Source: a virus. From it: a stretch of 62,808 nucleotides of DNA. The translations under genes and the position numbers were made by a program. The notes beneath the pieces were generated by a model that was given only the letters and a program-made list of their open reading frames with translations, had not been told where the DNA came from and ran no database searches. The number at the start of each line of letters is the position of its first letter. Position 1 is the first letter of the stretch. Positions 8,856 to 36,810 of the stretch are shown here, piece after piece. The stretch covers positions 1 through 62,808 of IMG/VR virus record IMGVR_UViG_3300045988_163888; one strand, written 5' to 3'.

Positions 8856-11420
8856 TCAGCCAACGTTGCCAGCTGAGGCAACCACGATTTTTCGGGACGC
8901 GTATTCGCCAAGCAAGAAATAGCCCGTCAAGTCGTAAATATGGTCTTCCTGCGTGGTATCCACATCGTCAGGGTCTCTTTGTGATCGCTGTAAAACAGGG
9001 ACCGTGCGTATAAAATTCCGGCAATGGTCAAACACAAACAAGCCCGCGTCCGCATCGCGCTCGATTGCGCCTGTAAGACGCTCCCTAAGTAGCGTCAACA
9101 TCTGATGCCGAGTTCCCGGCGCTTTGTTGCAAGGTGCAAAAAACACGCCGTATTCCTCAAACTGCTTCGCAACAGTCACTTGCGCCGCTGATGTTGAGGC
9201 AAAAATTGCAGAATCGGCAATACTTTCATCAACGCGATAACCGAGCATAGCCTCCGTTTCCTTGATACGCTCTGCACGGTCTCTTATGCTTGACTTGTCG
9301 CCCTCGTTCGCCTTGCCTGTGGAACCGTAAAGCTCTTGTATTAAAAAAGCGTCACCTGCGATTGTTGGACGTTTTTCACCGTCCGCTGTTATGTAGTCAG
9401 TGCCATCAGATACAGCAAACCAGCCGACCGCCCATGGATGTGAGTTGCCATCGTCGTAACTCTTGACAATGTACCACGATTCCGGAATCTTGAAGCGCGG
9501 CATAACGTGAATTTGTTCGTTCCATAGGTCATCAACCGCCCCGCCCGCCGTGATGTTCCAGTCGCCTTCCAACATTGCTTTAATCAGCCAATCTTGCCCC
9601 AGTCCACGCAGGCGGTTCGCGTACTCTTCCTGATTCAGCGACGGATTATCTGACAGCTTCGCAGGCACAAATTGACGGAGCATGCCGCCTTCCGAGGCAG
9701 ATGTTTTCCATATCGTTTCGGCTGGTTTAGGGTCAATAAACATCGATTTTACCCAGTTATGCCCCGGTCCGCCGGGGTTAGACCCGCACAAAATCTTAGG
9801 GAAAGTTAAGTTCGGAATTAACTTCCTGATAGCCGGGTCAATTGCAACTTGCTTTGACACTCGACAGCGACCGCGCAAAAACCGGTATTGATACTCTGTA
9901 AAGTGCGTCAATTCGTCAATCAACAGCACGCCGATTTCCGCGCCCTGATACTTCATGACATCTTTTTCGTACTGGCAATGGCACAAATGTATAGTGCTCC
10001 CAGATTCAACAAAACGGATTTTTGGCGGGTTTGTTGTAATGCGCACGCTCTTATGTTCCACCGCTTCAGCAAGCAACGCCGGAAAGCCTGTTTCCCCCTC
10101 AAAATGATTTTTCAAAAGGTCATCACTCAACCGCCGGAAAAGGTACACTTGCAAGCCCCGGACGTTGTCGCAGAGCATAATGGCAAAAATTCGCATTAAA
10201 AACGAGTTATGCGTGGGTATACAGCTTTTCCCGGCAAGATAACAGCTGGACGCGGAATCAACTTGGATGCACTTGACAGGCACACTCTTACAACGCTCCG
10301 CAGATACAATCATCCGCCGCCGTGAGTATGCATTCCGTGCCGTTTTTATGCGTTTTTTGTATCTGTCCAATTGAGTTATATCAGCTTGCCACGGGATAAA
10401 GCGCACGCGGTATTTTATGCCGCAATCTTTGCCATTTAGACGCGCTATACCATACGTAAGAGTTGCCTTAATTCCAAGCGAGTTAAGCAAAAAGCATACC
10501 GATACCGCAATGTCTTTGTTTATACTGGTGTACTCACAATGCCCATTCTCGCCAACTGTACCGTCCGAATCCATAAAACCGCGCAAAAGCTCCATACGGT
10601 TTTCAATCGTGGTAAAAAGATACCGTTCCGGCACATGCTTATTGTGTATCAGATTCAGGCGTTTAAGGAGCGGAGTTAAACCGATTATCCCCCACTTATA
10701 TTTCGCTGTCCGTTTGGTAACTTCAAATCCGCAAGCGCGGATGTAAGGGATAACATCGTCATCGCCCGTGGAAAAGCCGCAACCGTCGGAGTTACCATCA
10801 CCAAGCCACAACCCTAGTACATAAGGAGGGATTATCAGTTCCTCCCGCGATTCCGGCATTTCTACTGCCCTGCAAACCGCTACAGAGTGATTCAGCCGTC
10901 CACCCACTCGCAAAGTTGCCGCAATGGTTTCCGTCGTTACGACAGATTCAAACTTGCGGCCTTTGTTACAATACACGCGTTTTGAGTTTGCAACCGCCAA
11001 ATCCGGACGTTTGCCCATGCCACGCAAGGGACGTTTTGCGCGCCGATTTGCGCGATATTCTGGCGTGCTTTTGCGTTCCGCTTCTCTTTGTGCGTCTGTC
11101 TTTGTCACCCACTGATGCAAATCGTCAGCGATGATTTTAGAGCCGTCATCAAAAACGACTTTCCGGCATGGTCTATCCGTCAAAATTGGCGTTTCTGCTA
11201 TGACGTTGCAAGGCTTTCCGTTTTCGTCAAAAACAACATCCCCAACATGTACATCAGCCATTCGCTTAAAGCCGCAAGTGGTCAAAATTGGCGTTTCAAC
11301 CCATAGGGCTTTCCCACCCCCCGCAGCCCCGCCGTACAAAATCTCTGTCGCGTCCGTTTTCAGCACGCAACCTTGCCGCGGATGCAACGCCGGAAGCCCG
11401 ATTTCGTTCACTGCCATCAT
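8856..11420 (-). CDS. terL: terminase large subunit precursor containing an intein with LAGLIDADG homing endonuclease
   Basis: Walker A split as GGAAGGGK / SFLMRI, Walker B LLIDELTHF, C-terminal nuclease-like domain; 371-aa insertion with intein blocks and LGLWLGDGNSDG / LLRGFMDSDG motifs. Confidence 0.85.
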   Translation of the reverse strand: MMAVNEIGLPALHPRQGCVLKTDATEILYGGAAGGGKALWVETPILTTCGFKRMADVHVGDVVFDENGKPCNVIAETPILTDRPCRKVVFDDGSKIIADDLHQWVTKTDAQREAERKSTPEYRANRRAKRPLRGMGKRPDLAVANSKRVYCNKGRKFESVVTTETIAATLRVGGRLNHSVAVCRAVEMPESREELIIPPYVLGLWLGDGNSDGCGFSTGDDDVIPYIRACGFEVTKRTAKYKWGIIGLTPLLKRLNLIHNKHVPERYLFTTIENRMELLRGFMDSDGTVGENGHCEYTSINKDIAVSVCFLLNSLGIKATLTYGIARLNGKDCGIKYRVRFIPWQADITQLDRYKKRIKTARNAYSRRRMIVSAERCKSVPVKCIQVDSASSCYLAGKSCIPTHNSFLMRIFAIMLCDNVRGLQVYLFRRLSDDLLKNHFEGETGFPALLAEAVEHKSVRITTNPPKIRFVESGSTIHLCHCQYEKDVMKYQGAEIGVLLIDELTHFTEYQYRFLRGRCRVSKQVAIDPAIRKLIPNLTFPKILCGSNPGGPGHNWVKSMFIDPKPAETIWKTSASEGGMLRQFVPAKLSDNPSLNQEEYANRLRGLGQDWLIKAMLEGDWNITAGGAVDDLWNEQIHVMPRFKIPESWYIVKSYDDGNSHPWAVGWFAVSDGTDYITADGEKRPTIAGDAFLIQELYGSTGKANEGDKSSIRDRAERIKETEAMLGYRVDESIADSAIFASTSAAQVTVAKQFEEYGVFFAPCNKAPGTRHQMLTLLRERLTGAIERDADAGLFVFDHCRNFIRTVPVLQRSQRDPDDVDTTQEDHIYDLTGYFLLGEYASRKIVVASAGNVG
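10197..11309 (-). other. intein (Ala1, Trp-B12 / Cys-F4 / Thr-G5 = class 3-like) with double LAGLIDADG endonuclease, inserted in TerL P-loop
   Basis: N-terminus ALWVETPILTT-GFKRMADVHVGDVV aligns to block A with Ala in place of Cys1; block B GSKIIADDLHQW; C-terminus SCIPTHN followed by Ser +1. Confidence 0.7.
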
Positions 11421-14484: not shown

Positions 14485-15231
14485 TCATGGCAAATCTTCT
14501 TCCGGCTCAAATTCGCCAATTTTCAAAAAGGCGTTAACAGTTTCACCGTCAACATGGCGTTGCAACACATCAAAACCAAAAAAATCACAAAAAGCATCTG
14601 ATTCCGCCTGAGAGTTAAAAACAATCACCTTAAAAAAATCCGGTGAATTCTTGCCATTCGCTTTATCTTTTTCAACTTTTCGCTTCTCTTTTATCTTCTT
14701 GATTTCCTCAATATCAGCTTTGACTTGCTCATCTTCTTCATCAAATTTTGTGCCTAAAATAGCATCAGCAACGGGACTGTCAAAATTTGCCGCAATATCA
14801 AAAGCATTAAAGCCGACTTCTGCAAAATTGATTCCGTCTTTGAGTAACAAATCGCCAATTTTAGTTAAATCGTAACTTCCTGCCAAATTTTGATTGTTCA
14901 GGATAATATTCAGCTCGCGTTCCTCTTTTTCGTCTACGTCAACCGCGCTAACTGTGATTAAATAGTCGTTTTCGTGTGTTTCCGGATTGTATCTTTCCGC
15001 TTTGTCTAGGTTTCGTAAACGCTGATGCCCACCAACTAAAATTCCCGTCCGTTTATTCCACACCAGAGGCTCTACAAGCCCTTTTTTCTTGAGGATTTTC
15101 CGGAGCGTTTTATCACTCTGTTCGTCCATAAAACGCGGGTTATATGGCGCTTCTTTAATCTGACTTCGTCGTATGTCCATAACCTCAAAACGCTGGTATT
15201 TACAACGCTGGATTTCCTGTTCATTCGCCAT
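14485..15231 (-). CDS. ParB-like N-terminal (nuclease/sulfiredoxin-type) domain protein
   Basis: GGHQRL motif region (VGGHQRLRNL); ATG 15231 with AGGAA RBS overlapping stop of upstream gene. Confidence 0.65.
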   Translation of the reverse strand: MANEQEIQRCKYQRFEVMDIRRSQIKEAPYNPRFMDEQSDKTLRKILKKKGLVEPLVWNKRTGILVGGHQRLRNLDKAERYNPETHENDYLITVSAVDVDEKEERELNIILNNQNLAGSYDLTKIGDLLLKDGINFAEVGFNAFDIAANFDSPVADAILGTKFDEEDEQVKADIEEIKKIKEKRKVEKDKANGKNSPDFFKVIVFNSQAESDAFCDFFGFDVLQRHVDGETVNAFLKIGEFEPEEDLP

Positions 15232-15968
15232 TTTCAATTCCTCCCTGTTGATTATTGTATTCATCCTCAAGTTCCCGTTCGTATTCAGCTTCAGCCATTT
15301 TGCGTGCATTTTCAAACATTTTCCGATGTTCATGCGCCTCAATGTATGGGAAAACCTCTTTAACTCGCGCGTAATCTTCCGGAAAATGTGCTTTCAAAAC
15401 GTCCAAGTTTTCCGGTCGAAGGTCGCCAATACTGCGCTTGCAGTAGCGATATTCCGGAGAAAGCTGTATTTTATGCATTTCAAGATACGATTTCACTTTT
15501 TTCGGGTTCCATTCTGCAAGAGGATATATTTTTTTGCGTATTGTATCAACGCCACCAATTCCCTTTAGCATAGCGTTTCTAGATATGGATTCACAAATCA
15601 TTTCACCAGTAGCAATCCACTCACAGCCAAAAGTCAGCTTCAAATAATCAACAAGATCCTTTGGAGTTATAGCTGGACAATCATTGGTAAAACGGTTTGT
15701 ATCTCTAAACATCCCCCCTAAATACACCAAACCAAGCATAAAATGAGGAACTCTCAATATTTCAATATTGTACCGTTTTTCTAGATAGTGTATATACGTT
15801 TCCTGAAAATTCAATCCTTTAACGACATACATAAAATACGGGTAAACATGTCTAAAGTTTTTACAACACAAATCAAGTGTAGCAATACTATCTTTGCCAA
15901 GCGACACGCCAACAATAACACTTTGCGTCAAGGTGCTTGCGTACCTAACAGCGTCCATTAAAGCCATA
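15221..15968 (-). CDS. phosphoadenosine phosphosulfate reductase-family (DndC-like) protein
   Basis: SLGKDS P-loop (PP-loop ATP pyrophosphatase) motif; TAGGAGG RBS before ATG 15968. Confidence 0.7.
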
Positions 15969-16040
15969 ACAAAACCTCCTAAAAATAGTAAAGCATACCC
16001 ACAAAACAATAGGTATGCTTCACCAACCACGCAAAAACAA

Positions 16041-16361
16041 TCAGCCACCAGCCAGTCCGAGACCGTTCCGAAGCCGTCTGTATGCTTGCTTTCTTGTCGT
16101 TCCGCGTCCTTCGTAATTCTCACCGTCAATAACAACTGCGGCGGTAAATTTTTCTTTTCCGCTCCATTTTGTTCTGACGTATGAGATGTCATTCCGCAGG
16201 ATACGCCTTGGATTACCGTCCCGATCCACAATAACACCGCGTTCATACTTAAAAGAACGGTATCGGCTCTTTTTGGGCACTGTCTCACCGCGAAAAGACG
16301 ATGTTCTACCAAGACCGCTTGGCGGTACACCTCTGGTATTGCTGTTAGTTCTCCTTGCCAT
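16041..16361 (-). CDS. hypothetical basic protein, first gene downstream of late element copy 5
   Basis: AGGAG RBS; Arg-rich 106 aa. Confidence 0.45.
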   Translation of the reverse strand: MARRTNSNTRGVPPSGLGRTSSFRGETVPKKSRYRSFKYERGVIVDRDGNPRRILRNDISYVRTKWSGKEKFTAAVVIDGENYEGRGTTRKQAYRRLRNGLGLAGG

Positions 16362-17995: not shown

Positions 17996-18430
17996 TTAGT
18001 TTTTGCCCGTGGACCCATAACCGCCCGCGCCGCGTTCCGATTCAGAGAGCTCATCTGCCTCTACATATTCGACGCGCGGGACTGGTTTTATGATAAGTTG
18101 CGCGAATCTGTCTCCGGTATCATAGGGGAGTTTGGTTCCGCTATGGTAAAAAATGGCGCAAATTTCGCCACGATATCCGGAATCAATCGTCCCAACACCA
18201 TTGGATAATATTGCTTCAGATTTGTGAATACTGGAACGTGCTCTAAGCTGCCCTTCGTACCCTTCGGGGATCTCAACAGCAATACCGGAATGCGCCTTAA
18301 CTCTGCAACTGTCAAGGCGTTCAACATAAACGGCTGTGAGGTCAAATCCGGCATCGCCGGGTCTGCCTTGCTTCGGGGCTTCAGCCTCCGGTGTGAGTTT
18401 CTTAAACTTGATTTTCATGCTTGTCATGGT
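17996..18430 (-). CDS. dut: dUTP diphosphatase
   Basis: all five dUTPase motifs present (GDAGFDL, RSS, GTIDSGYRGEI, GDRFAQLII, RGAGGYGSTG). Confidence 0.9.
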   Translation of the reverse strand, partial: TMTSMKIKFKKLTPEAEAPKQGRPGDAGFDLTAVYVERLDSCRVKAHSGIAVEIPEGYEGQLRARSSIHKSEAILSNGVGTIDSGYRGEICAIFYHSGTKLPYDTGDRFAQLIIKPVPRVEYVEADELSESERGAGGYGSTGKN

Positions 18431-18462
18431 AATATAACCTTTCTTTGCTTTTTTGCTAATAT

Positions 18463-19077
18463 TCAAGCGATTTTTGCGGACTTTTCTTCAAGGATACAGG
18501 CGATTACGCGCTCTCCTTGATTGCGGATTGTCTTTGCCCGCCGGATTATGCGTTTTGCGACGTTCCCATTTTCGGAAACGATTGTCAAAACCTTGCCTTT
18601 TCGGGCGTTAAAGGGTTTGTATTCAAGAGGCAAAAGGACGATCCGACGGTTTTTAAGCTGTATCTTTTTGTACAGCGAGTGGGGTACGTGAAACACGCCG
18701 TCCGCGATTTCCTTCGCCTTGCGCTCCGCTTCCTCTTTTTCGCGCTTCTTTGCTTCGCGCTTCGCCTTGCGTTCGGCTTTTTTGCGTTCCTGCTCTTCGT
18801 CAAGAGCTTTCCCCATGTACTTTTCCGTGGTTCCGACAGGGTCTTTCAGATACTCTTCCTTGACGATTTTCCGGATTGGCGCGGCGATTCGGGACAAGTC
18901 AAACGCGCCGGGTTCAAACATTTTGTCCTCCCGCCCCTGAACGACGACGTACATTCCGGCGATGAACGCGCATTGCGGGCAAACCTTGAACGGCTTTTCT
19001 TTGGTTGCGATATTGGTAACAGCTCTTGCATCAACCATGCTATTACAGCCGATGCAACGGACTTTTTCAGGGGTCAT
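18463..19077 (-). CDS. hypothetical protein with N-terminal zinc ribbon and Lys/Glu-rich central region
   Basis: CIGC...CPQC; AAGGAGG RBS; ATG overlaps stop of upstream frame (ATGA). Confidence 0.5.
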   Translation of the reverse strand: MTPEKVRCIGCNSMVDARAVTNIATKEKPFKVCPQCAFIAGMYVVVQGREDKMFEPGAFDLSRIAAPIRKIVKEEYLKDPVGTTEKYMGKALDEEQERKKAERKAKREAKKREKEEAERKAKEIADGVFHVPHSLYKKIQLKNRRIVLLPLEYKPFNARKGKVLTIVSENGNVAKRIIRRAKTIRNQGERVIACILEEKSAKIA

Positions 19078-19103
19078 TTTCCTTCCTCCTTTTCGTGGAA
19101 ACA

Positions 19104-19507
19104 CATGTCCTTAAAATTTCGATATTTGGTTTTTTCGGCATTATCCAGATACAGTGTAAGGGCTTCCGATACTATATGCTCAATCTCCCTTATCTCTTCC
19201 GATTGCGGAGCATGTACGCATACCCGCAAAATGTCGTTCAGGGCTCTGTGAAAAAATTCCTCAAACTCGCTCGTTTTTGGCTCCTCTTTTTTCCGAAAAT
19301 AATCTGTTGTATTTCATCAAAAGTTGGAAGTTCCGGATCAATGCGGAACTTTTTGCCTTCGATTTCTATTTCATGTAAGCAGTCTTCAACGGTCTGTTTT
19401 ACAAGTCTTTCCCGTTTAGCTTTGGCGACAGCCTTGTCGATTTCATCCCGAGTTGGAAGCCCCGGTTTGCGGGGCTCGTTGCGTTCACGTTTTTCCTGTT
19501 CAGTCAT
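19104..19507 (-). CDS. hypothetical protein encoded in two frames joined at an A_AAA_AAG slippery heptamer (-1 frameshift or homopolymer indel)
   Basis: frame X 19238..19507 (89 aa) and frame Y 19104..~19300 (no start codon; ends with TGA overlapping next ATG) overlap at GGA AAA AAG (19285..19292, minus). Confidence 0.5.
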
Positions 19508-19937
19508 TTTTTACCTTTTCATGTTCCAGTTTCAACCATTTGACGGTGTGTTTGAGACAACGCTTGCTTGCATCGATACGATTGTAAATACCTCCCTCTT
19601 CTGCGTATCCTTCAAATACTTTTCCGTCTGGAGCAACGCAAAAGCGATCACAAATGTCAAAATCAACTAGTCTTTTTGCCAGCTCCTGCGGATGTTTGCA
19701 AAGCCAGTCTAGGTTTGTAACCGGACGTTCAATCAGGGAGTTTTTCCAGTCCGTCGCGTCGAACTCTCCACAATACCGATCATAGGCGTACATCCAGCGC
19801 CCACGGACAGCGTCATAGTCGGGCTCTTGGTCGTAATAGTACGCAGTTCCGTCCCTGTTTACTGCCGCGTAACGTGCCCATTTCGGGCACGATTTACGCT
19901 TGAAAGCGGCGGTTGTAAGTTTCTTCCGTTCGTTCAT
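19500..19937 (-). CDS. hypothetical protein
   Basis: 145 aa ORF translationally coupled to neighbours. Confidence 0.45.
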   Translation of the reverse strand: MNERKKLTTAAFKRKSCPKWARYAAVNRDGTAYYYDQEPDYDAVRGRWMYAYDRYCGEFDATDWKNSLIERPVTNLDWLCKHPQELAKRLVDFDICDRFCVAPDGKVFEGYAEEGGIYNRIDASKRCLKHTVKWLKLEHEKVKND

Positions 19938-20260
19938 TTCCCTGCCTCCTTTGCCGGTTCCATGTTCAGAAATTCACGAATGGAATCGGGGGTAATACGA
20001 ACTAATCTATGCCCCAGTTTTACGGTGTGAAGTTGTCCGGTTTTTATATATTTGTACAAGGTAATGCGATGTACCTGCAACAGGGCGCATGTCTCCTTTA
20101 TCGTCAGCGGACGTTCAATGCTCAAGTTTTGCTCCGGTTCGTCAATTTCATATTTTTTCAGTGCTGCGACAAGTCTTGCTTTAGTGAGTTTCGGTACTGC
20201 CGACCTAAGTAACGCAACAGCGCCTTCCAATACCGTGGGGTTAATTTCAAGGACTTTCAT
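19934..20260 (-). CDS. HTH DNA-binding protein (MerR/excisionase-like)
   Basis: LTIKETCALLQVHRITLYKYIKTGQL helix-turn-helix. Confidence 0.5.
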   Translation of the reverse strand: MKVLEINPTVLEGAVALLRSAVPKLTKARLVAALKKYEIDEPEQNLSIERPLTIKETCALLQVHRITLYKYIKTGQLHTVKLGHRLVRITPDSIREFLNMEPAKEAGK

Positions 20261-20275
20261 TTTGTTTCTCCTGTG

Positions 20276-21064
20276 TTAGTTTTTCTTTTCGAAGTGTTCA
20301 AACTCCGGCACTTTGATTTTGTCTTTCGGAAAATCTTCAAGCTCAACGAGCTTTTGCATGATGTAGCGCATCTGCGGGTGCGCTCCGGGCGCGAGACGGA
20401 GCTTGAGCATATCTTCCCATTGCTTGTACATCCCGGTGACATACAGCACGGTCGCGGTTGAAAGGGGCAAAACGGCGCGGGCTTCCTGCGGACGCGCTCC
20501 CTTGCGAATCATCAGGCGATATGCGGCTTCCGCTGAGACGCACTCCATATACCACGCGTCGCTCAAAACACCGAATTCATCCCATGCGAACGGAACGGGC
20601 TTGATAAAGTCGATACAGTCGGACATGTTGCAATACCGCGTCGAGCGCTCCATAAAGGACATCTGCCTGTGGCGTATCAGCTCGCGTGCCACGCCGATAT
20701 CAACCGTAAACTTGACGGTCATATAGTCGTCGGCTTCCGGCAATTCTTTCAAGTCTTCGAGTTTTCCTTCCAATGTAAGATAATCTCTAACATTGACTGT
20801 GAGGCGTTTTTCCAAATCCCCGGTTGTTCCAAGTCGATCCCAAATACCGTAAGATTTAACCCAAAGACTCAGAATGTCCCAGTCCGCCGCCACTCTCACA
20901 TGCTCGAACGGCGTTTCATGGCGATTTTTCCAAAGGTTTTCGACAAAGCCGGGCTTGCTTCCTACTTTGTCTTGCGTTCCCGTGCAAACGCGGGCGATTG
21001 TCTCAATTTTTCGGAAGTGGTCGTATTCGGTGTAGATTTCTACGGACGGTTCAATGATTCTCAT
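20276..21064 (-). CDS. thyX: flavin-dependent thymidylate synthase ThyX
   Basis: ThyX signature RHRQMSFMERS (RHR-X7-S). Confidence 0.85.
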   Translation of the reverse strand: MRIIEPSVEIYTEYDHFRKIETIARVCTGTQDKVGSKPGFVENLWKNRHETPFEHVRVAADWDILSLWVKSYGIWDRLGTTGDLEKRLTVNVRDYLTLEGKLEDLKELPEADDYMTVKFTVDIGVARELIRHRQMSFMERSTRYCNMSDCIDFIKPVPFAWDEFGVLSDAWYMECVSAEAAYRLMIRKGARPQEARAVLPLSTATVLYVTGMYKQWEDMLKLRLAPGAHPQMRYIMQKLVELEDFPKDKIKVPEFEHFEKKN

Positions 21065-21492: not shown

Positions 21493-21865
21493 CCTTCAAG
21501 GCGCGGTCGATTGCCTCAACCCACGCCCTATAGCTTTTCGCGGTCTCATCATCGGCGCTTGCCATGCCGATAATAAGTCCCTCCCTAAACATCGTCAGCA
21601 AGTCGCGATATCTGGAAAGCGTGGCGTTACAAGTTTTCAGCATTTTGAGCGCCCTTTTTGTTTGGTCAACCGACTTGCCCCACATGTCAAAAGTCCAGTT
21701 CATGCGCATGTCGACCAGCCGCAAATACGCGATAATCGCCAACCCAAAGACTGTTACGATGATTCCGACTGGGTCCGCTCTTGCAATTGAGATTGCCACA
21801 AGAGCCGCCTGAATCGCAAGACAAATATCTGTTATGGGGCTTTTAAAAAAGGTTTTCAGGTTCAT
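21455..21865 (-). CDS. membrane protein (start at MNLKTFFKS)
   Basis: two hydrophobic helices; ATGA overlap with upstream stop at 21862. Confidence 0.4.
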   Translation of the reverse strand: MNLKTFFKSPITDICLAIQAALVAISIARADPVGIIVTVFGLAIIAYLRLVDMRMNWTFDMWGKSVDQTKRALKMLKTCNATLSRYRDLLTMFREGLIIGMASADDETAKSYRAWVEAIDRALKDELKNFKTTVTK

Positions 21866-22575
21866 TTTCCCTCTTCCTCCTCGGTTTTGATTTCGTCCGC
21901 ATCTTCCGCCAGCCAGTCTTTCCAGCATTCGCAGCAACGATTATCGACACAGTGGTCCACCATGCACGCGCCAACGTCGCAAAGCCACCCCATCAGTTCC
22001 TCGTCACTCATTGCTCGAATCCATTCAGCGTTCGTCATTTTCCATTTCCTTGTTTTTTCGTCCGCATCTTCCCCCAGCCAGTCTTTCCAGCATGTGCGGC
22101 AGTCCTCGTAATCATCACAGCGCCAATGGTCGTAGTCCATGCACGCGCAGGTCAGACCATCCAGCCACTTCAGCATTCGCAGCCACTCCAGCAGCTCCTC
22201 GTCCGTCATCTGTCTAACTTTATCCGCATTTGTCATTTTCCATCCTCCTTTTTCTTCAAGTTTCGGTATCATCAGCCCGCCCGCGTTATGGTCGTCGATG
22301 TAGACATCCGCGTAAACCTTTCGCGGGTTGTTTCCCCACTGCTCGACGCGTTCGGGCAGATTGTCGTTTATCGCCGCCGGAAAGCACTTCCGGAGCACTA
22401 AAAAAGTGAGTGCCTCCCTTAGACTTTTTCCCTCGCGCATGGTGAGGAGAATCCACTTATCGCCGCGCTTCTGGATAGCGCGGATGAACTCAATTGTAGC
22501 CGGAATCGGCTTGCCGATTGCTGGGTATTCCTCGGTTACAATTGTACCGTCAAAGTCAATCGCGTAAATCGTCAT
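21862..22575 (-). CDS. HAD-superfamily phosphatase-like N-domain fused to a tandemly duplicated Cys/Trp-rich module
   Basis: DFDGTI (motif I) and YIDD; two ~60-aa repeats KMTNA..DEEL..W..C.C.D..W....C..CWKDWL.EDADE; also a ~180-bp tandem repeat at nucleotide level. Confidence 0.55.
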   Translation of the reverse strand: MTIYAIDFDGTIVTEEYPAIGKPIPATIEFIRAIQKRGDKWILLTMREGKSLREALTFLVLRKCFPAAINDNLPERVEQWGNNPRKVYADVYIDDHNAGGLMIPKLEEKGGWKMTNADKVRQMTDEELLEWLRMLKWLDGLTCACMDYDHWRCDDYEDCRTCWKDWLGEDADEKTRKWKMTNAEWIRAMSDEELMGWLCDVGACMVDHCVDNRCCECWKDWLAEDADEIKTEEEEGK

Positions 22576-24211: not shown

Positions 24212-24510
24212 CGTTCTTTCCCTCCCTCGAAATTTCGCCAAAACTCCATGTCCGCGGGTGATTCAAACCACTTTTTCCAGCAAGCCGCGCAATCATACGC
24301 TTCTCCGCAACTTCTAATCGGCGGGCAGTCCCATTTCGCGCAAAAATAAGCCAGTGCGAAATTGTCCAGCGCTTTCAACCGTTCTCCATTCGTGCCAAAC
24401 GCTTTCGGGCATTCCCCGTCCACGCGCCGGAAGCCGCCGAAACGGTCGCAAACAACGTACTTGCAATCGCCCGGAAACTTCCGAGCAAAGTTACATTCAA
24501 GACAGTTCAT
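24208..24510 (-). CDS. hypothetical Cys-rich protein
   Basis: 12 Cys in 100 aa. Confidence 0.45.
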   Translation of the reverse strand: MNCLECNFARKFPGDCKYVVCDRFGGFRRVDGECPKAFGTNGERLKALDNFALAYFCAKWDCPPIRSCGEAYDCAACWKKWFESPADMEFWRNFEGGKER

Positions 24511-25754
24511 TTCAGTTTCCTTTCGGTTAATTCAATGCGCATTCCAATCCAGCGCATTACGTTGACGCACATTGAGTTTCCGCACGCCTTGTATCGGTGT
24601 GAATCGGGACATTCTTCTTCCGGCTTGCCTCTCCACGGAATACGCGTCCAGTTGTCCGGGAAGCCCATCAGCCGCTCACATTCGACGGGAAGCAGGATGC
24701 GGACGGATGTGGCATAGACTAAAGGAAGATTGTTTCCTCCGGTCCCGGCGTTTGCGGAGATAACCGGGGCACAATCGACTCTCTTAACTCGGCTGTCCTT
24801 CGCATGATTTTCATAGCATACCGCCTGTTCTCCGTCCGAATTCGCCATCAAAGCAATCGGAGCCTCATGGTTACATGTTATCGCCGAGGGACAACCTGAA
24901 GAGATTTCCGCATTGCTCTGTCCGGACGCCATGACCAACGTCGGCCCGTTCACGTTTTTGCGCCGTGTGTCCACCGTCGCGGACACACGTCCGGTAATAG
25001 CCCCGTTATATCCATCGCATCCAAGCACATTCAGAAGCTCGCTGTCTTCGCCTGTTCCTGCAATGCTTCTGCCAGCTCTTTCGGCAAAGCGTTTCCTTTT
25101 CGTTCTGCGCGGCGGAGTATTCCGGAACACGCTTTCCGGCTCAAATAATACTCCTGCGGGACATCGGAAATCGGAACCAAAATGTCCGACAACGAACACA
25201 CGTCGTCGTCTTTGCGGAATGGCACGAGGGAATCCGTCCACTCTGACGTACTGAGCGTCCAGCACTCTCCATGCGCAAGAATACCCGATTTCATCAATTT
25301 TTCGCAGGAACGCCCGGAAGTCATCCCCTCGATTTGCACTGAAAACACCGGGGACGTTTTCCCACACGAACCATCTGGGACGCATAGTCTCAAGAAGTTC
25401 GCAATAGGCGAGGCAGAGGGCGCTTCGCGGGTCATTAAGTCCATCCCGCTTTCCCGCGACGCTAAATCCCTGGCACGGGGTCCCTCCGACGAGGAGATCA
25501 ACTCCTCCGGGAACAACGACATCTGCTCCAGATTCATTTTTGAACCGCTGAAGTTTTCCTGTCTCATTTTCGATTGTCTCCACTTTGATTTTTGTCATAT
25601 CTCCCAAGTTCGGAACTTCGGGAAAACGATGTTTCAGGACTGCGCACGGGAACGGTTCAATTTCGGAAAACCAAGCTGCTTTCCATCCGAGCGGCATCCA
25701 CGCAAGGCTTGCCGCCTCAACGCCGCTGCATACTGATGCGTAAATCATGTTCAT
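24507..25754 (-). CDS. DNA (cytosine-5)-methyltransferase
   Basis: motif IV GGTPCQGFS, motif VI VWENVPG, motif I-like YASVCSGVEAAS. Confidence 0.85.
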   Translation of the reverse strand: MNMIYASVCSGVEAASLAWMPLGWKAAWFSEIEPFPCAVLKHRFPEVPNLGDMTKIKVETIENETGKLQRFKNESGADVVVPGGVDLLVGGTPCQGFSVAGKRDGLNDPRSALCLAYCELLETMRPRWFVWENVPGVFSANRGDDFRAFLRKIDEIGYSCAWRVLDAQYVRVDGFPRAIPQRRRRVFVVGHFGSDFRCPAGVLFEPESVFRNTPPRRTKRKRFAERAGRSIAGTGEDSELLNVLGCDGYNGAITGRVSATVDTRRKNVNGPTLVMASGQSNAEISSGCPSAITCNHEAPIALMANSDGEQAVCYENHAKDSRVKRVDCAPVISANAGTGGNNLPLVYATSVRILLPVECERLMGFPDNWTRIPWRGKPEEECPDSHRYKACGNSMCVNVMRWIGMRIELTERKLK

Positions 25755-35458: not shown

Positions 35459-35707
35459 ATGGGTATAAACATAAAGCGCGACAATCGGGGGACTGTCACG
35501 CTGAATGAAGCTCTGGACGGAGGTTGCATTGATAACCGCACTATTATCAATCTGCCTCCTTACGTGGTGTGGGCTGCGGCTGGAATTGCGCTGGCATTTT
35601 GTGCTACTGCAATAGGTTGTCGCCTCATCCCGCAAGAGGTACACCACACATTCGACCAAAGCGCAAATGTGCATATTTCTAGCACGGGGAACGGAGGGTT
35701 GAAGTAA
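35459..35707 (+). CDS. small membrane protein
   Basis: one TM helix (VVWAAAGIALAFCATAIGC). Confidence 0.4.
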   Translation: MGINIKRDNRGTVTLNEALDGGCIDNRTIINLPPYVVWAAAGIALAFCATAIGCRLIPQEVHHTFDQSANVHISSTGNGGLK

Positions 35708-36810
35708 TGGCTTTACGCTGTATAAAAGGTTGCTATTACGCCTATTTTAGGGACGTTGACGGGCGGCTCAAGACCCGTACGCTCAAAACCAAAGACCCGG
35801 TAGACGCTATCAGACTGCACGCAGAATACATGTCTTTTGTGCTCAAACGCAAGCAAACGCATGTTATAGTCAAGGACTTCCCCGAGTTCTTCCCGCAGGC
35901 TCATTTAGCTGTAACACCGCTTCCAAAAACCGTTCTTCCCCTCCCTAAGGAGGGGGAACATAGCCGAAACGGTTTGCCGCTCGCAAGCATGATTGATGAA
36001 CTGGAAAAAATTCAGCCATTGCCTGTCACAAGCCGCCGAATCATAGCCAGATTTTTAAAAAGTATGACTGTTAAATACATGGATATGGTAACTCCGGAAA
36101 TGGCACAAAATTACCTAGAACAAAATTTCTCCCACGGGAGAAACTACAAGTCCTACAATAACAATAAGGGCGTGTTAAACAAGGCTTTCCGGCTATTGCT
36201 TGTCAAAGCAAAATTGACGCGCTCTCCGTTCGAGAGTATCGTATCACGCAAGATAAAAAATGTGCTTTCGCATCGTCCGATTACAGCAACAGAGTTCAAG
36301 CGCATTTACCGTGCCGCCAACCTTCCGACGCGCGTCGCCGCCGCTTTAGGCTTTTTCGCCGGAATGGACATATCAACAGCCTTTTCCATACCTTGTAACG
36401 CAATTTACCTTAAAGAGCGCCTGATACGCTGGAAACGCCCTAAATCTGGGCAATGGTTTACATGTGGTATACAGCCGGAATTACTTCAAATCCTTACAGA
36501 GCTTAACTTCCCCGCAGATTCCGAAAAACCGCTCCTAAGCCACTTAAACTCAAAAACAGCCCATTCCGCTGGAGTGGACTACAAAAAGCTTTTCGAAAAA
36601 CTAAAAATTAAAGACACAGAGGAGGGCAAAGCAAGTTTCCATAGCTTCCGCGCATCGTTCTTCACGCGATGCGACGCGGGCAATCTGCACAGACGTACAA
36701 CATCTCTTGCCGGAGGACACAAGAGCGATGCGATGAACGACCTGTACAGCCATGACGTTTCAGCCGCCCACGAGGTCGAAAAATTGCCGAAAATCGGGCT
36801 TTTTTCGTGA
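35707..36810 (+). CDS. int: tyrosine-type site-specific integrase
   Basis: catalytic motifs HSFRASF (HxxR) and LAGGHKSD...NDLYSH (H...Y); GGAGGG RBS. Confidence 0.85.
   Translation: MALRCIKGCYYAYFRDVDGRLKTRTLKTKDPVDAIRLHAEYMSFVLKRKQTHVIVKDFPEFFPQAHLAVTPLPKTVLPLPKEGEHSRNGLPLASMIDELEKIQPLPVTSRRIIARFLKSMTVKYMDMVTPEMAQNYLEQNFSHGRNYKSYNNNKGVLNKAFRLLLVKAKLTRSPFESIVSRKIKNVLSHRPITATEFKRIYRAANLPTRVAAALGFFAGMDISTAFSIPCNAIYLKERLIRWKRPKSGQWFTCGIQPELLQILTELNFPADSEKPLLSHLNSKTAHSAGVDYKKLFEKLKIKDTEEGKASFHSFRASFFTRCDAGNLHRRTTSLAGGHKSDAMNDLYSHDVSAAHEVEKLPKIGLFS

Follow-up and report, generated by a model that had tools for sequence, protein, structure and literature searches.

The locus described here raises the question of whether a small phage gene, interrupted at a run of six adenines beside an open -1 frame, is decoded by programmed frameshifting as in dnaX or has been divided in some other way. 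A first-pass annotation of the same DNA had proposed either a programmed -1 shift giving short and long isoforms or a homopolymer sequencing error. We approached the question through the layout of the gene, its relatives in metagenomic phage contigs, and the signals expected around a recoding site. The window referred to throughout is the whole stretch of DNA analyzed, 62,808 nt in length.

The divided gene and its surroundings

The features of the locus are listed in their order along the minus strand, on which all of them lie.

19238..19507, minus: zero-frame ORF of 89 aa, from ATG 19507 to TGA 19240..19238, as given by sequence and translation
19286..19292, minus: A_AAA_AAG heptamer (A6 tract), with the zero-frame codons GGA AAA AAG at 19294..19286
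19281..19286, minus: GAGGAG, Glu-Glu in the fused frame, located 6 nt 5' of the internal ATG in relatives
19272..19274, minus: ACG codon (Thr), where most relatives and every other split allele have an internal ATG
19238..19240, minus: zero-frame TGA stop, overlapped by a -1-frame CTG (CTGA)
19227..19229, minus: TTG, the first canonical -1-frame start, 8 nt past the zero-frame stop, which would give a 51-aa C-fragment
19074..19286, minus: -1-frame C-terminal domain of 70 codons plus TGA, open from GAG 19286 to TGA 19076..19074
18463..19077, minus: downstream 204-aa gene with a Cys-rich N-terminus (CxxC...CxxC), the ATG of which (19077..19075) overlaps the TGA of the C-half (ATGA)

Translation placed the zero-frame stop where the first-pass annotation had it, at 19238, while the heptamer, reported there as 19285..19292, in fact occupies 19292..19286. 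Between the start ATG at 19507 and the stop of the preceding 145-aa gene there is an overlap of 8 nt, and the 89-aa product, ending by translation in ...IIFGKKRSQKRASLRNFFTEP (also ...QQIIFGKKRSQKRASLRNFFTEP), consists of an N-terminal domain (74 aa common to the orthologues) followed by a 15-aa out-of-frame tail, RSQKRASLRNFFTEP. The heptamer has the X_XXY_YYZ form of a slippery site for dnaX-type -1 frameshifting and stands in the correct zero-frame phase. Judging by its sequence and position, GAGGAG can in relatives serve as the ribosome binding site for the 66-aa C-domain gene that is called there on its own.

The -1 frame, with the peptide EEPKTSEFEE...HEKEEGK, is closed by two stops 8 codons 5' of the heptamer and then stays open for 70 codons rather than for the 62 first counted, although the peptide reported with that count was itself correct. 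No ATG, GTG or TTG was found in it before the TTG at 19229, so that its lack of a start codon of its own had been rightly noted, as had the overlap of its TGA with the ATG of the next gene. This frame was 85-97% identical to the C-terminal half of continuous orthologues of 104-144 aa, and pN/pS in this half was 0.12-0.30 in all comparisons with relatives, including split-versus-split pairs (0.12-0.24, although the splits may postdate that divergence). Because of this identity and these ratios, the -1 frame is, as judged by sequence comparison, coding sequence and no chance ORF, and it genuinely continues the gene as the first-pass annotation had stated. As in gene fission, the neighbouring ORFs correspond by homology to successive stretches of one fused orthologue, and the conserved extension in the -1 frame is also a property of dnaX-type sites.

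The split gene belongs to a tightly packed minus-strand operon in the order DUF3310, ThyX, HTH_17, 145-aa ORF, split gene, 204-aa Cys-rich ORF, dUTPase and SSB, and is thereby set in a thyX/dUTPase/SSB module. The genome is that of a 62.8-kb tailed phage with 48.5% GC, encoding a portal, a Mu-F-like protein and a C5-methylase, and no tRNA genes were found in it. For the protein of the split gene, Pfam and PHROGs gave no significant family and a PDB profile search returned nothing below E = 0.07. AlphaFold2, run on a 14-sequence alignment, produced a poor, all-helical model (mean pLDDT 60.8, pTM 0.27) with the lowest confidence at residues 72-75, between helical segments; as far as this model goes, it is consistent with a flexible linker at those residues. 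Searching with the C-half alone retrieved members of the same family only, with no stand-alone C-genes in other contexts. Megablast and blastn gave no match for 18400..20300 among INPHARED phages, exact DNA-pattern scans with the conserved flanks found nothing in IMG/VR or GTDB genomes, a profile scan of GTDB genomes detected no prophage copy, and scans of IMG/VR and JGI metagenomes added only three loci.

Several further observations were made on this genome and its relatives. The portal was only ~31% identical to those of 9g/JenP-like coliphages (Nonagvirus and relatives). A PAPS-reductase-domain protein, a C5 cytosine methyltransferase and a weak integrase-family match were seen at 15221..16330 (minus), 24507..25754 (minus) and 35707..36810 (plus); the modification genes and the integrase match give hints of a DNA-modification module and possibly of a temperate lifestyle. 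An 854-aa ORF at 8856..11420 (minus), just upstream of the portal gene, contains a LAGLIDADG/homing-endonuclease domain at residues ~263-331 (Pfam E = 8.6e-7), which probably marks an intein, or an inserted endonuclease, within the large terminase gene or a structural gene next to it; Pfam found no terminase domain in this ORF. A segment of ~70 nt occurs twice with ~81% identity, at 21862..21936 and 22035..22101, in adjacent small genes upstream of the DUF3310/thyX block, and was noticed when the loci L001 and L003 gave secondary BLAST matches to the window. The relatives are mosaic just downstream of the split gene, some phages having an extra ORF of 69-78 aa or one of 296 aa before the 204-aa gene (L008:3432-3668, L019:2431-2640, L012:3433-4323), and the upstream neighbour also varies, being 127, 135, 145 or 148 aa long or absent.

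Continuous and broken alleles in the family

The family was collected by searching with the conceptual fused product, and it is small, comprising metagenomic phage contigs only. Its continuous members measure 144 aa (P0001, P0028 and P0030), 116 aa (P0002, P0023, P0024 and P0031) or 104-119 aa (P0003-6), with a more distant continuous group (P0009/10/15-17) at 117-119 aa, and the N-part of the 89-aa product is homologous to P0001, P0028 and others. At the linker, the window and its continuous relatives read as follows.

L031 (P0028, 144 aa), the closest full-length allele: TTCGGAAAAAAAGAGGAGCCAAAAATGAGCGAGTTTGAGGAATTTTTTCAC, A7, continuous
Window allele: TTCGGAAAAAAGAGGAGCCAAAAACGAGCGAGTTTGAGGAATTTTTTCAC, A6, split
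L006/7: A7, continuous
L008-11: GGAATAAAAGAG (AATAAAA), continuous
L016-18: linkers of GVK (9-nt) repeats, continuous

The window differs here from L031 by one A fewer and by the change of ATG to ACG, and in L031 and L006 the A7 tract is read through as GGAAAAAAAGAG. In the comparison of orthologues that had been suggested at the outset, the nearest relatives had a fused single ORF and the slippery site was not conserved; it also bore out the earlier statement that a single-base difference in the A-run splits the gene. Deletion of one A from an in-frame A_AAA_AAA_G necessarily yields A_AAA_AAG in phase; being an automatic product of such a deletion, the heptamer therefore provides no independent evidence of a recoding signal.

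The window is one of several alleles in which the two halves are separated, the others being these.

A6 with ATG (L019-27): the zero frame ends ...CAA AAA TGA, with an ATGA overlap with the 66-aa C-gene and GAGGAG 6 nt 5'
+1 insertion, GGAAATAAAAGAGGAT (L012): C-half in the +1 frame, SD-ATG kept
GAG to TAG at codon 75 (L028-30): stop 9 nt 5' of the same internal ATG
GAG to TAG at codon 83 (L013, L032/33): stop 3' of the internal ATG
N-only with the C-half deleted: L014/15 (read from DNA) and P0011-14 and P0021 (protein sequences)

All of the disruptions were located within codons 73-83, an 11-codon linker, and none was seen inside either domain among the alleles compared. L019-30 and L012 carry GAGGAG/GGAG-N6-ATG at the place where the window carries GAGGAG-N6-ACG. 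By rough contig counts, split alleles outnumber intact ones in the FGKK/FGIK subgroup (~27 versus ~17) and amount to ~40% of all contigs seen. The C-part of the window is 6 nt from that of the intact L017, 9 nt from the A7 allele L006 and 24-27 nt from those of the other A6 alleles; by flanking-sequence distance, 1 nt separates L019 from a TAG75 allele and 8 nt separate L026 from the +1 allele. The three A6 backgrounds are thus not mutually nearest relatives, A6 being polyphyletic by that measure, and on this sequence evidence A6 would either have arisen more than once or have spread by recombination. Loss of the T from AATAAAA likewise yields A6. Taken as a whole, the pattern suggests that separation of the halves is tolerated and perhaps favoured.

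The following was also seen in individual members of the family. In L016 and L018 (~1590-1620) and in L017 the linker contains a 9-nt tandem repeat, GG(G/T)GTAAAA (GVK), in two or three copies, and its length varies accordingly. The N-domain (window 19507..19290, minus) has an internal repeat, with EPRKPGLPTRDEIDKAV at residues 11-27 and IDPELPTFDEIQQII at residues 56-70 (alignment A1); the shorter members P0005/6 and P0002-4 look like deletions between such repeated N-domain segments, and in the 104-107 aa forms MTEQEKRERNEPR is joined directly to I-E-x-GLPTWDEIQQII. An in-frame TAG follows ...PKMSEF (TTTTAGGAG versus TTTGAGGAG) in L013 (3244-3249), L032 and L033, at a site corresponding to ~19262 of the window; it occurs in three N-part backgrounds (P0007, P0022 and P0029), and past this stop the C-half continues fully intact and without a change of frame in all three loci. 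Among the A6/ACG contigs, L003 (3015-3086) and L004 (1586-1657), which come from different assemblies, leave the window sequence inside the C-half, after GATAATGCCGAAAAAA (~19130, minus), and both continue with the same 72 nt, AGTAAGCGGAACGCAGTTGG...GTGCAAATTGGTTATTTCGCCAATTTGCAC, closing the contig with a perfect palindromic hairpin of 11 bp. The window, all other loci and IMG/VR lacked this tail, for which no placement was found, and it may be either a real further truncation (a recombination or insertion junction) or an assembly artefact.

The window allele and the fate of its C-terminal half

We consider it probable that the window carries a genuine and heritable A7 to A6 deletion in the linker of a small two-domain phage gene, giving an N-domain protein. 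According to this scheme one A would have been lost from the linker A7, whereupon normal translation would yield the 89-aa product, an intact N-domain with a junk tail of 15 residues, and the heptamer would be a by-product of the deletion rather than an evolved signal. The C-domain sequence would remain intact in the -1 frame, with both the frame connection and the internal SD-ATG (ATG to ACG) lost, while in other split alleles the SD-ATG would let the C-half be translated as a separate, translationally coupled cistron of 66 aa. Slippage may still yield a little of the full 144-aa protein (~0.3% up to a few percent, supposing that translation in the host resembles that in E. coli), and reinitiation at TTG 19229 might yield the 51-aa C-fragment. 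The N-only relatives, the window-specific substitution Y135C and the break-off of L003 and L004 all point to the N-domain as the product that matters; we infer that the N-domain protein is the functional product in the window lineage and that the C-half is dispensable, silent, leaky or decaying. Some points count against a plain indel, namely that the C-half of the window has kept an unbroken reading frame that closes in the ATGA overlap, and that A_AAA_AAG stands in exactly the right phase and is the most shift-prone motif known in E. coli.

Among the split alleles, only the window allele has ACG (19274..19272) in place of the internal ATG. As a consequence the zero frame is 15 codons longer and lacks the ATGA stop of L019-27, and the C-half is left without a canonical start. 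Compared with the intact L017, the C-half of the window shows six nucleotide differences, four of them synonymous and two non-synonymous, and this near-identity fits continued use and a very recent split equally well. The residue altered by Y135C is invariant in all other family members having the C-domain.

The alternative that the gene is functional in its split form, with the C-half made by termination-reinitiation at TTG 19229/CTGA or by initiation at ACG 19274 behind GAGGAG, can draw on the remaining alleles. The A6/ATG (L019-27), +1 (L012) and TAG75 (L028-30) alleles have an SD and ATG after the break and a called 66-aa gene, and L019-27, with ATGA and GAGGAG 6 nt 5', are textbook cases of fission or fusion with translationally coupled halves. 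In the TAG83 alleles, for which separate C-genes of 55-56 aa were called, the C-half must likewise restart at a downstream TTG; TTG 19229 lies ahead of the conserved C-domain core (RVCVHAPQSEEIREIEH...), and the operon is tightly coupled through overlapping stops and starts. The window differs from the coupled cases, however, in having ACG, which leaves its C-half no independent cistron, and the RBS and start that a downstream half possesses after fission are lacking, TTG 19229 having no SD before it. Both ACG and CTG are very poor bacterial start codons, Y135C changes an otherwise invariant residue, and in L003 and L004 the C-half may be truncated further. We find a working split gene unlikely as an explanation for the window.

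A bolder proposal, which we hold to be unlikely, is that the linker is a selected breakage point, at which A-tract indels (A7 or AATAAAA to A6, or a +1 insertion) and nonsense mutations repeatedly turn the fused protein into separate N and C polypeptides or into N alone and the pre-positioned SD-ATG makes this possible, with unstimulated slippage in the window allele setting a very low dose of full-length product, as a 'savior' indel with compensatory frameshifting would. The driver of such breakage could be a host defence or regulatory target that discriminates fused from split forms.

Recoding, switching, error and the meaning of the split allele

The site does have properties that invite a reading as a programmed -1 frameshift of the dnaX or phage G/GT type, in which the 89-aa and 144-aa isoforms would be made in a set ratio. 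The phase of the heptamer is correct, the -1 frame is a conserved domain under purifying selection with a genuine gene end, the C-half has no start here, which leaves slippage as the sole route to a complete C-domain, and A6 is present in three backgrounds. The flanking signals did not agree with it. In the 20 nt 5' of the heptamer, ACAACAGATTATTTTCGG, no SD-like stimulator in the form of a GGAGG- or AGGA-like element was found, and the only GAGGAG near the heptamer is directly 3' of the site. Structure downstream of the heptamer was no better than in shuffled controls, whether over 50 nt (MFE -5.8 kcal/mol, z +0.79) or over 86 nt (MFE -20.3, z -0.72), and the sole stable hairpin begins ~56 nt 3' of the heptamer, past the zero-frame stop. 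Without stimulators, the best V_VVA_AAG heptamers shift at ~0.3% in E. coli, a level that rises to no more than ~3.7% when the 3' context is optimal (PMC4066793), and the values may differ in the host of this phage; the shiftiness of AAG requires a single tRNA-Lys(UUU) in the host, as is true of about half of bacteria (PMC5009743).

Taken by itself the heptamer is nothing unusual, as AAAAAAG was found 68 times in the window against 42 expected, and A_AAA_AAG in phase in ~8 copies in a crude ORF set, i.e. in ~7 other ORFs. A hungry-codon pause at the AGG after the heptamer was considered and ruled out, AGG making up 124 of the 1159 Arg codons (11%). Transcriptional slippage on the 6-nt A run is unlikely, slippage in Thermus dnaX using a longer run (PMC5009743).

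The alleles speak against programming as well, in that the closest orthologues have a single uninterrupted ORF whose tract is either non-slippery or in frame, the heptamer is unavoidable once A7 loses an A, the other A6 alleles have the ATGA overlap and SD and need no frameshift, and the linker is also broken by nonsense mutations and a +1 insertion, neither of which a -1 shift could repair. Of the properties of a dnaX-type site, two were thus found here (the phase of the heptamer and the conserved extension) and three were not (the 5' stimulator, the 3' stimulator and conservation in orthologues). With continuous relatives, no stimulators found and a heptamer explicable as a by-product of deletion, a programmed -1 frameshift as in dnaX, the first of the two original proposals, is quite improbable.

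The E. coli dnaX gene (tau/gamma) has the same heptamer in the same codon phase, and a tandem slip of lysyl-tRNA would be the mechanism here too; dnaX has, however, an upstream SD-like stimulator and a downstream stem-loop, neither of which was found at the window site, its shift leads to a shorter product whereas a shift in the window would lead to a longer one, and its site is conserved among the relatives using it, whereas the closest relatives of the window are continuous ORFs. In the G/GT tail assembly chaperones of tailed phages (lambda G_GGA_AAG) a -1 slip extends a short product to a fusion, as it would in the window. The position of that frameshift is conserved across very diverse phages, between the major tail and tape-measure genes (PMC5009743), whereas the window gene is in a nucleotide-metabolism/replication module and the need for a shift is an allele-specific polymorphism. 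For any residual full-length synthesis the closest mechanistic analogy is neither dnaX nor G/GT but the class of 'savior' or problem indels with low-level compensatory frameshifting, such as that at the herpesvirus thymidine kinase G-run (Atkins et al. 2016, PMC5009743). There, as here, a homopolymer indel breaks the frame and a shift-prone run can restore a little full product; the difference lies in the relatives without the C-half, which suggest that the C-half is dispensable, and in the window gene having no known selective agent.

An adaptive hypermutable switch, with A6/A7 toggling between fused and split or off states and selection repeatedly favouring the split (for example through a host defence sensing one form), would resemble homopolymer phase variation at contingency loci, where run length decides the frame and both states circulate. 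At least four different disruptive mutations confined to the 11-codon linker, with none elsewhere in the gene, agree with such a switch, as do the A6 alleles not being mutually nearest relatives and the split alleles being about as common as intact ones. The tract, on the other hand, is short for high-rate phase variation (6-7 nt), its states (A6, A7 and AATAAAA) were compared between lineages only, and one A6 event could have spread via recombination, so that we judge a switch to be quite unlikely.

The A6 tract itself was reproducible, and the indel allele is real and in circulation. The identical 89-aa product was present on seven contigs (ERZ1749166, ERZ1749022, ERZ1749157, SRR1761705 and ERZ28622033; at least three libraries), four of which were 100% identical to the window, and L003, differing from the window by five SNPs and one indel in 3 kb, shares the A6. 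Cluster look-up and contig retrieval gave 11 further A6 contigs (nine of the L019-25 type and two of the L026/27 type; P0019 and P0020 types) from other studies, assembled with SPAdes, MEGAHIT or Logan, which brings the A6 contigs to 18, spread over three sequence backgrounds and more than one study and assembler, these counts being non-independent inasmuch as several window-type assemblies may share one cohort or be re-assemblies of the same runs. A homopolymer sequencing or assembly error concealing a true A7 genome with a single 144-aa ORF, the second of the original proposals, is therefore very improbable in view of this recurrence across studies, of the A6 in the slightly diverged strain L003 and of A7 having been assembled without trouble in L006, L007 and L031, even though a one-base difference in a homopolymer of 6-7 nt is the form such errors classically take, the names of some contigs point to low coverage (1.5-4.8x) and several of the window type may come from one cohort.

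An appropriate annotation would be that of a two-domain ORFan present here in a frameshifted or split allele, and neither that of a dnaX-like recoding site nor that of an error to be 'corrected'. Caution is called for when an in-phase A_AAA_AAG is encountered beside an open -1 frame, since an indel in an A7 run can trivially leave such a footprint. In this small family from uncultured gut phages, ~40% of the observed contigs are broken within 11 codons by at least four different mutations, and the internal SD-ATG is usually ready for the second half, making the family a clean natural example of fusion and fission in a phage accessory gene. The general significance is modest, and only the concentration of breaks in the linker is perhaps worth more work; if this clustering reflects selection, such as escape from a host system sensing the fused protein, the gene merits functional study.
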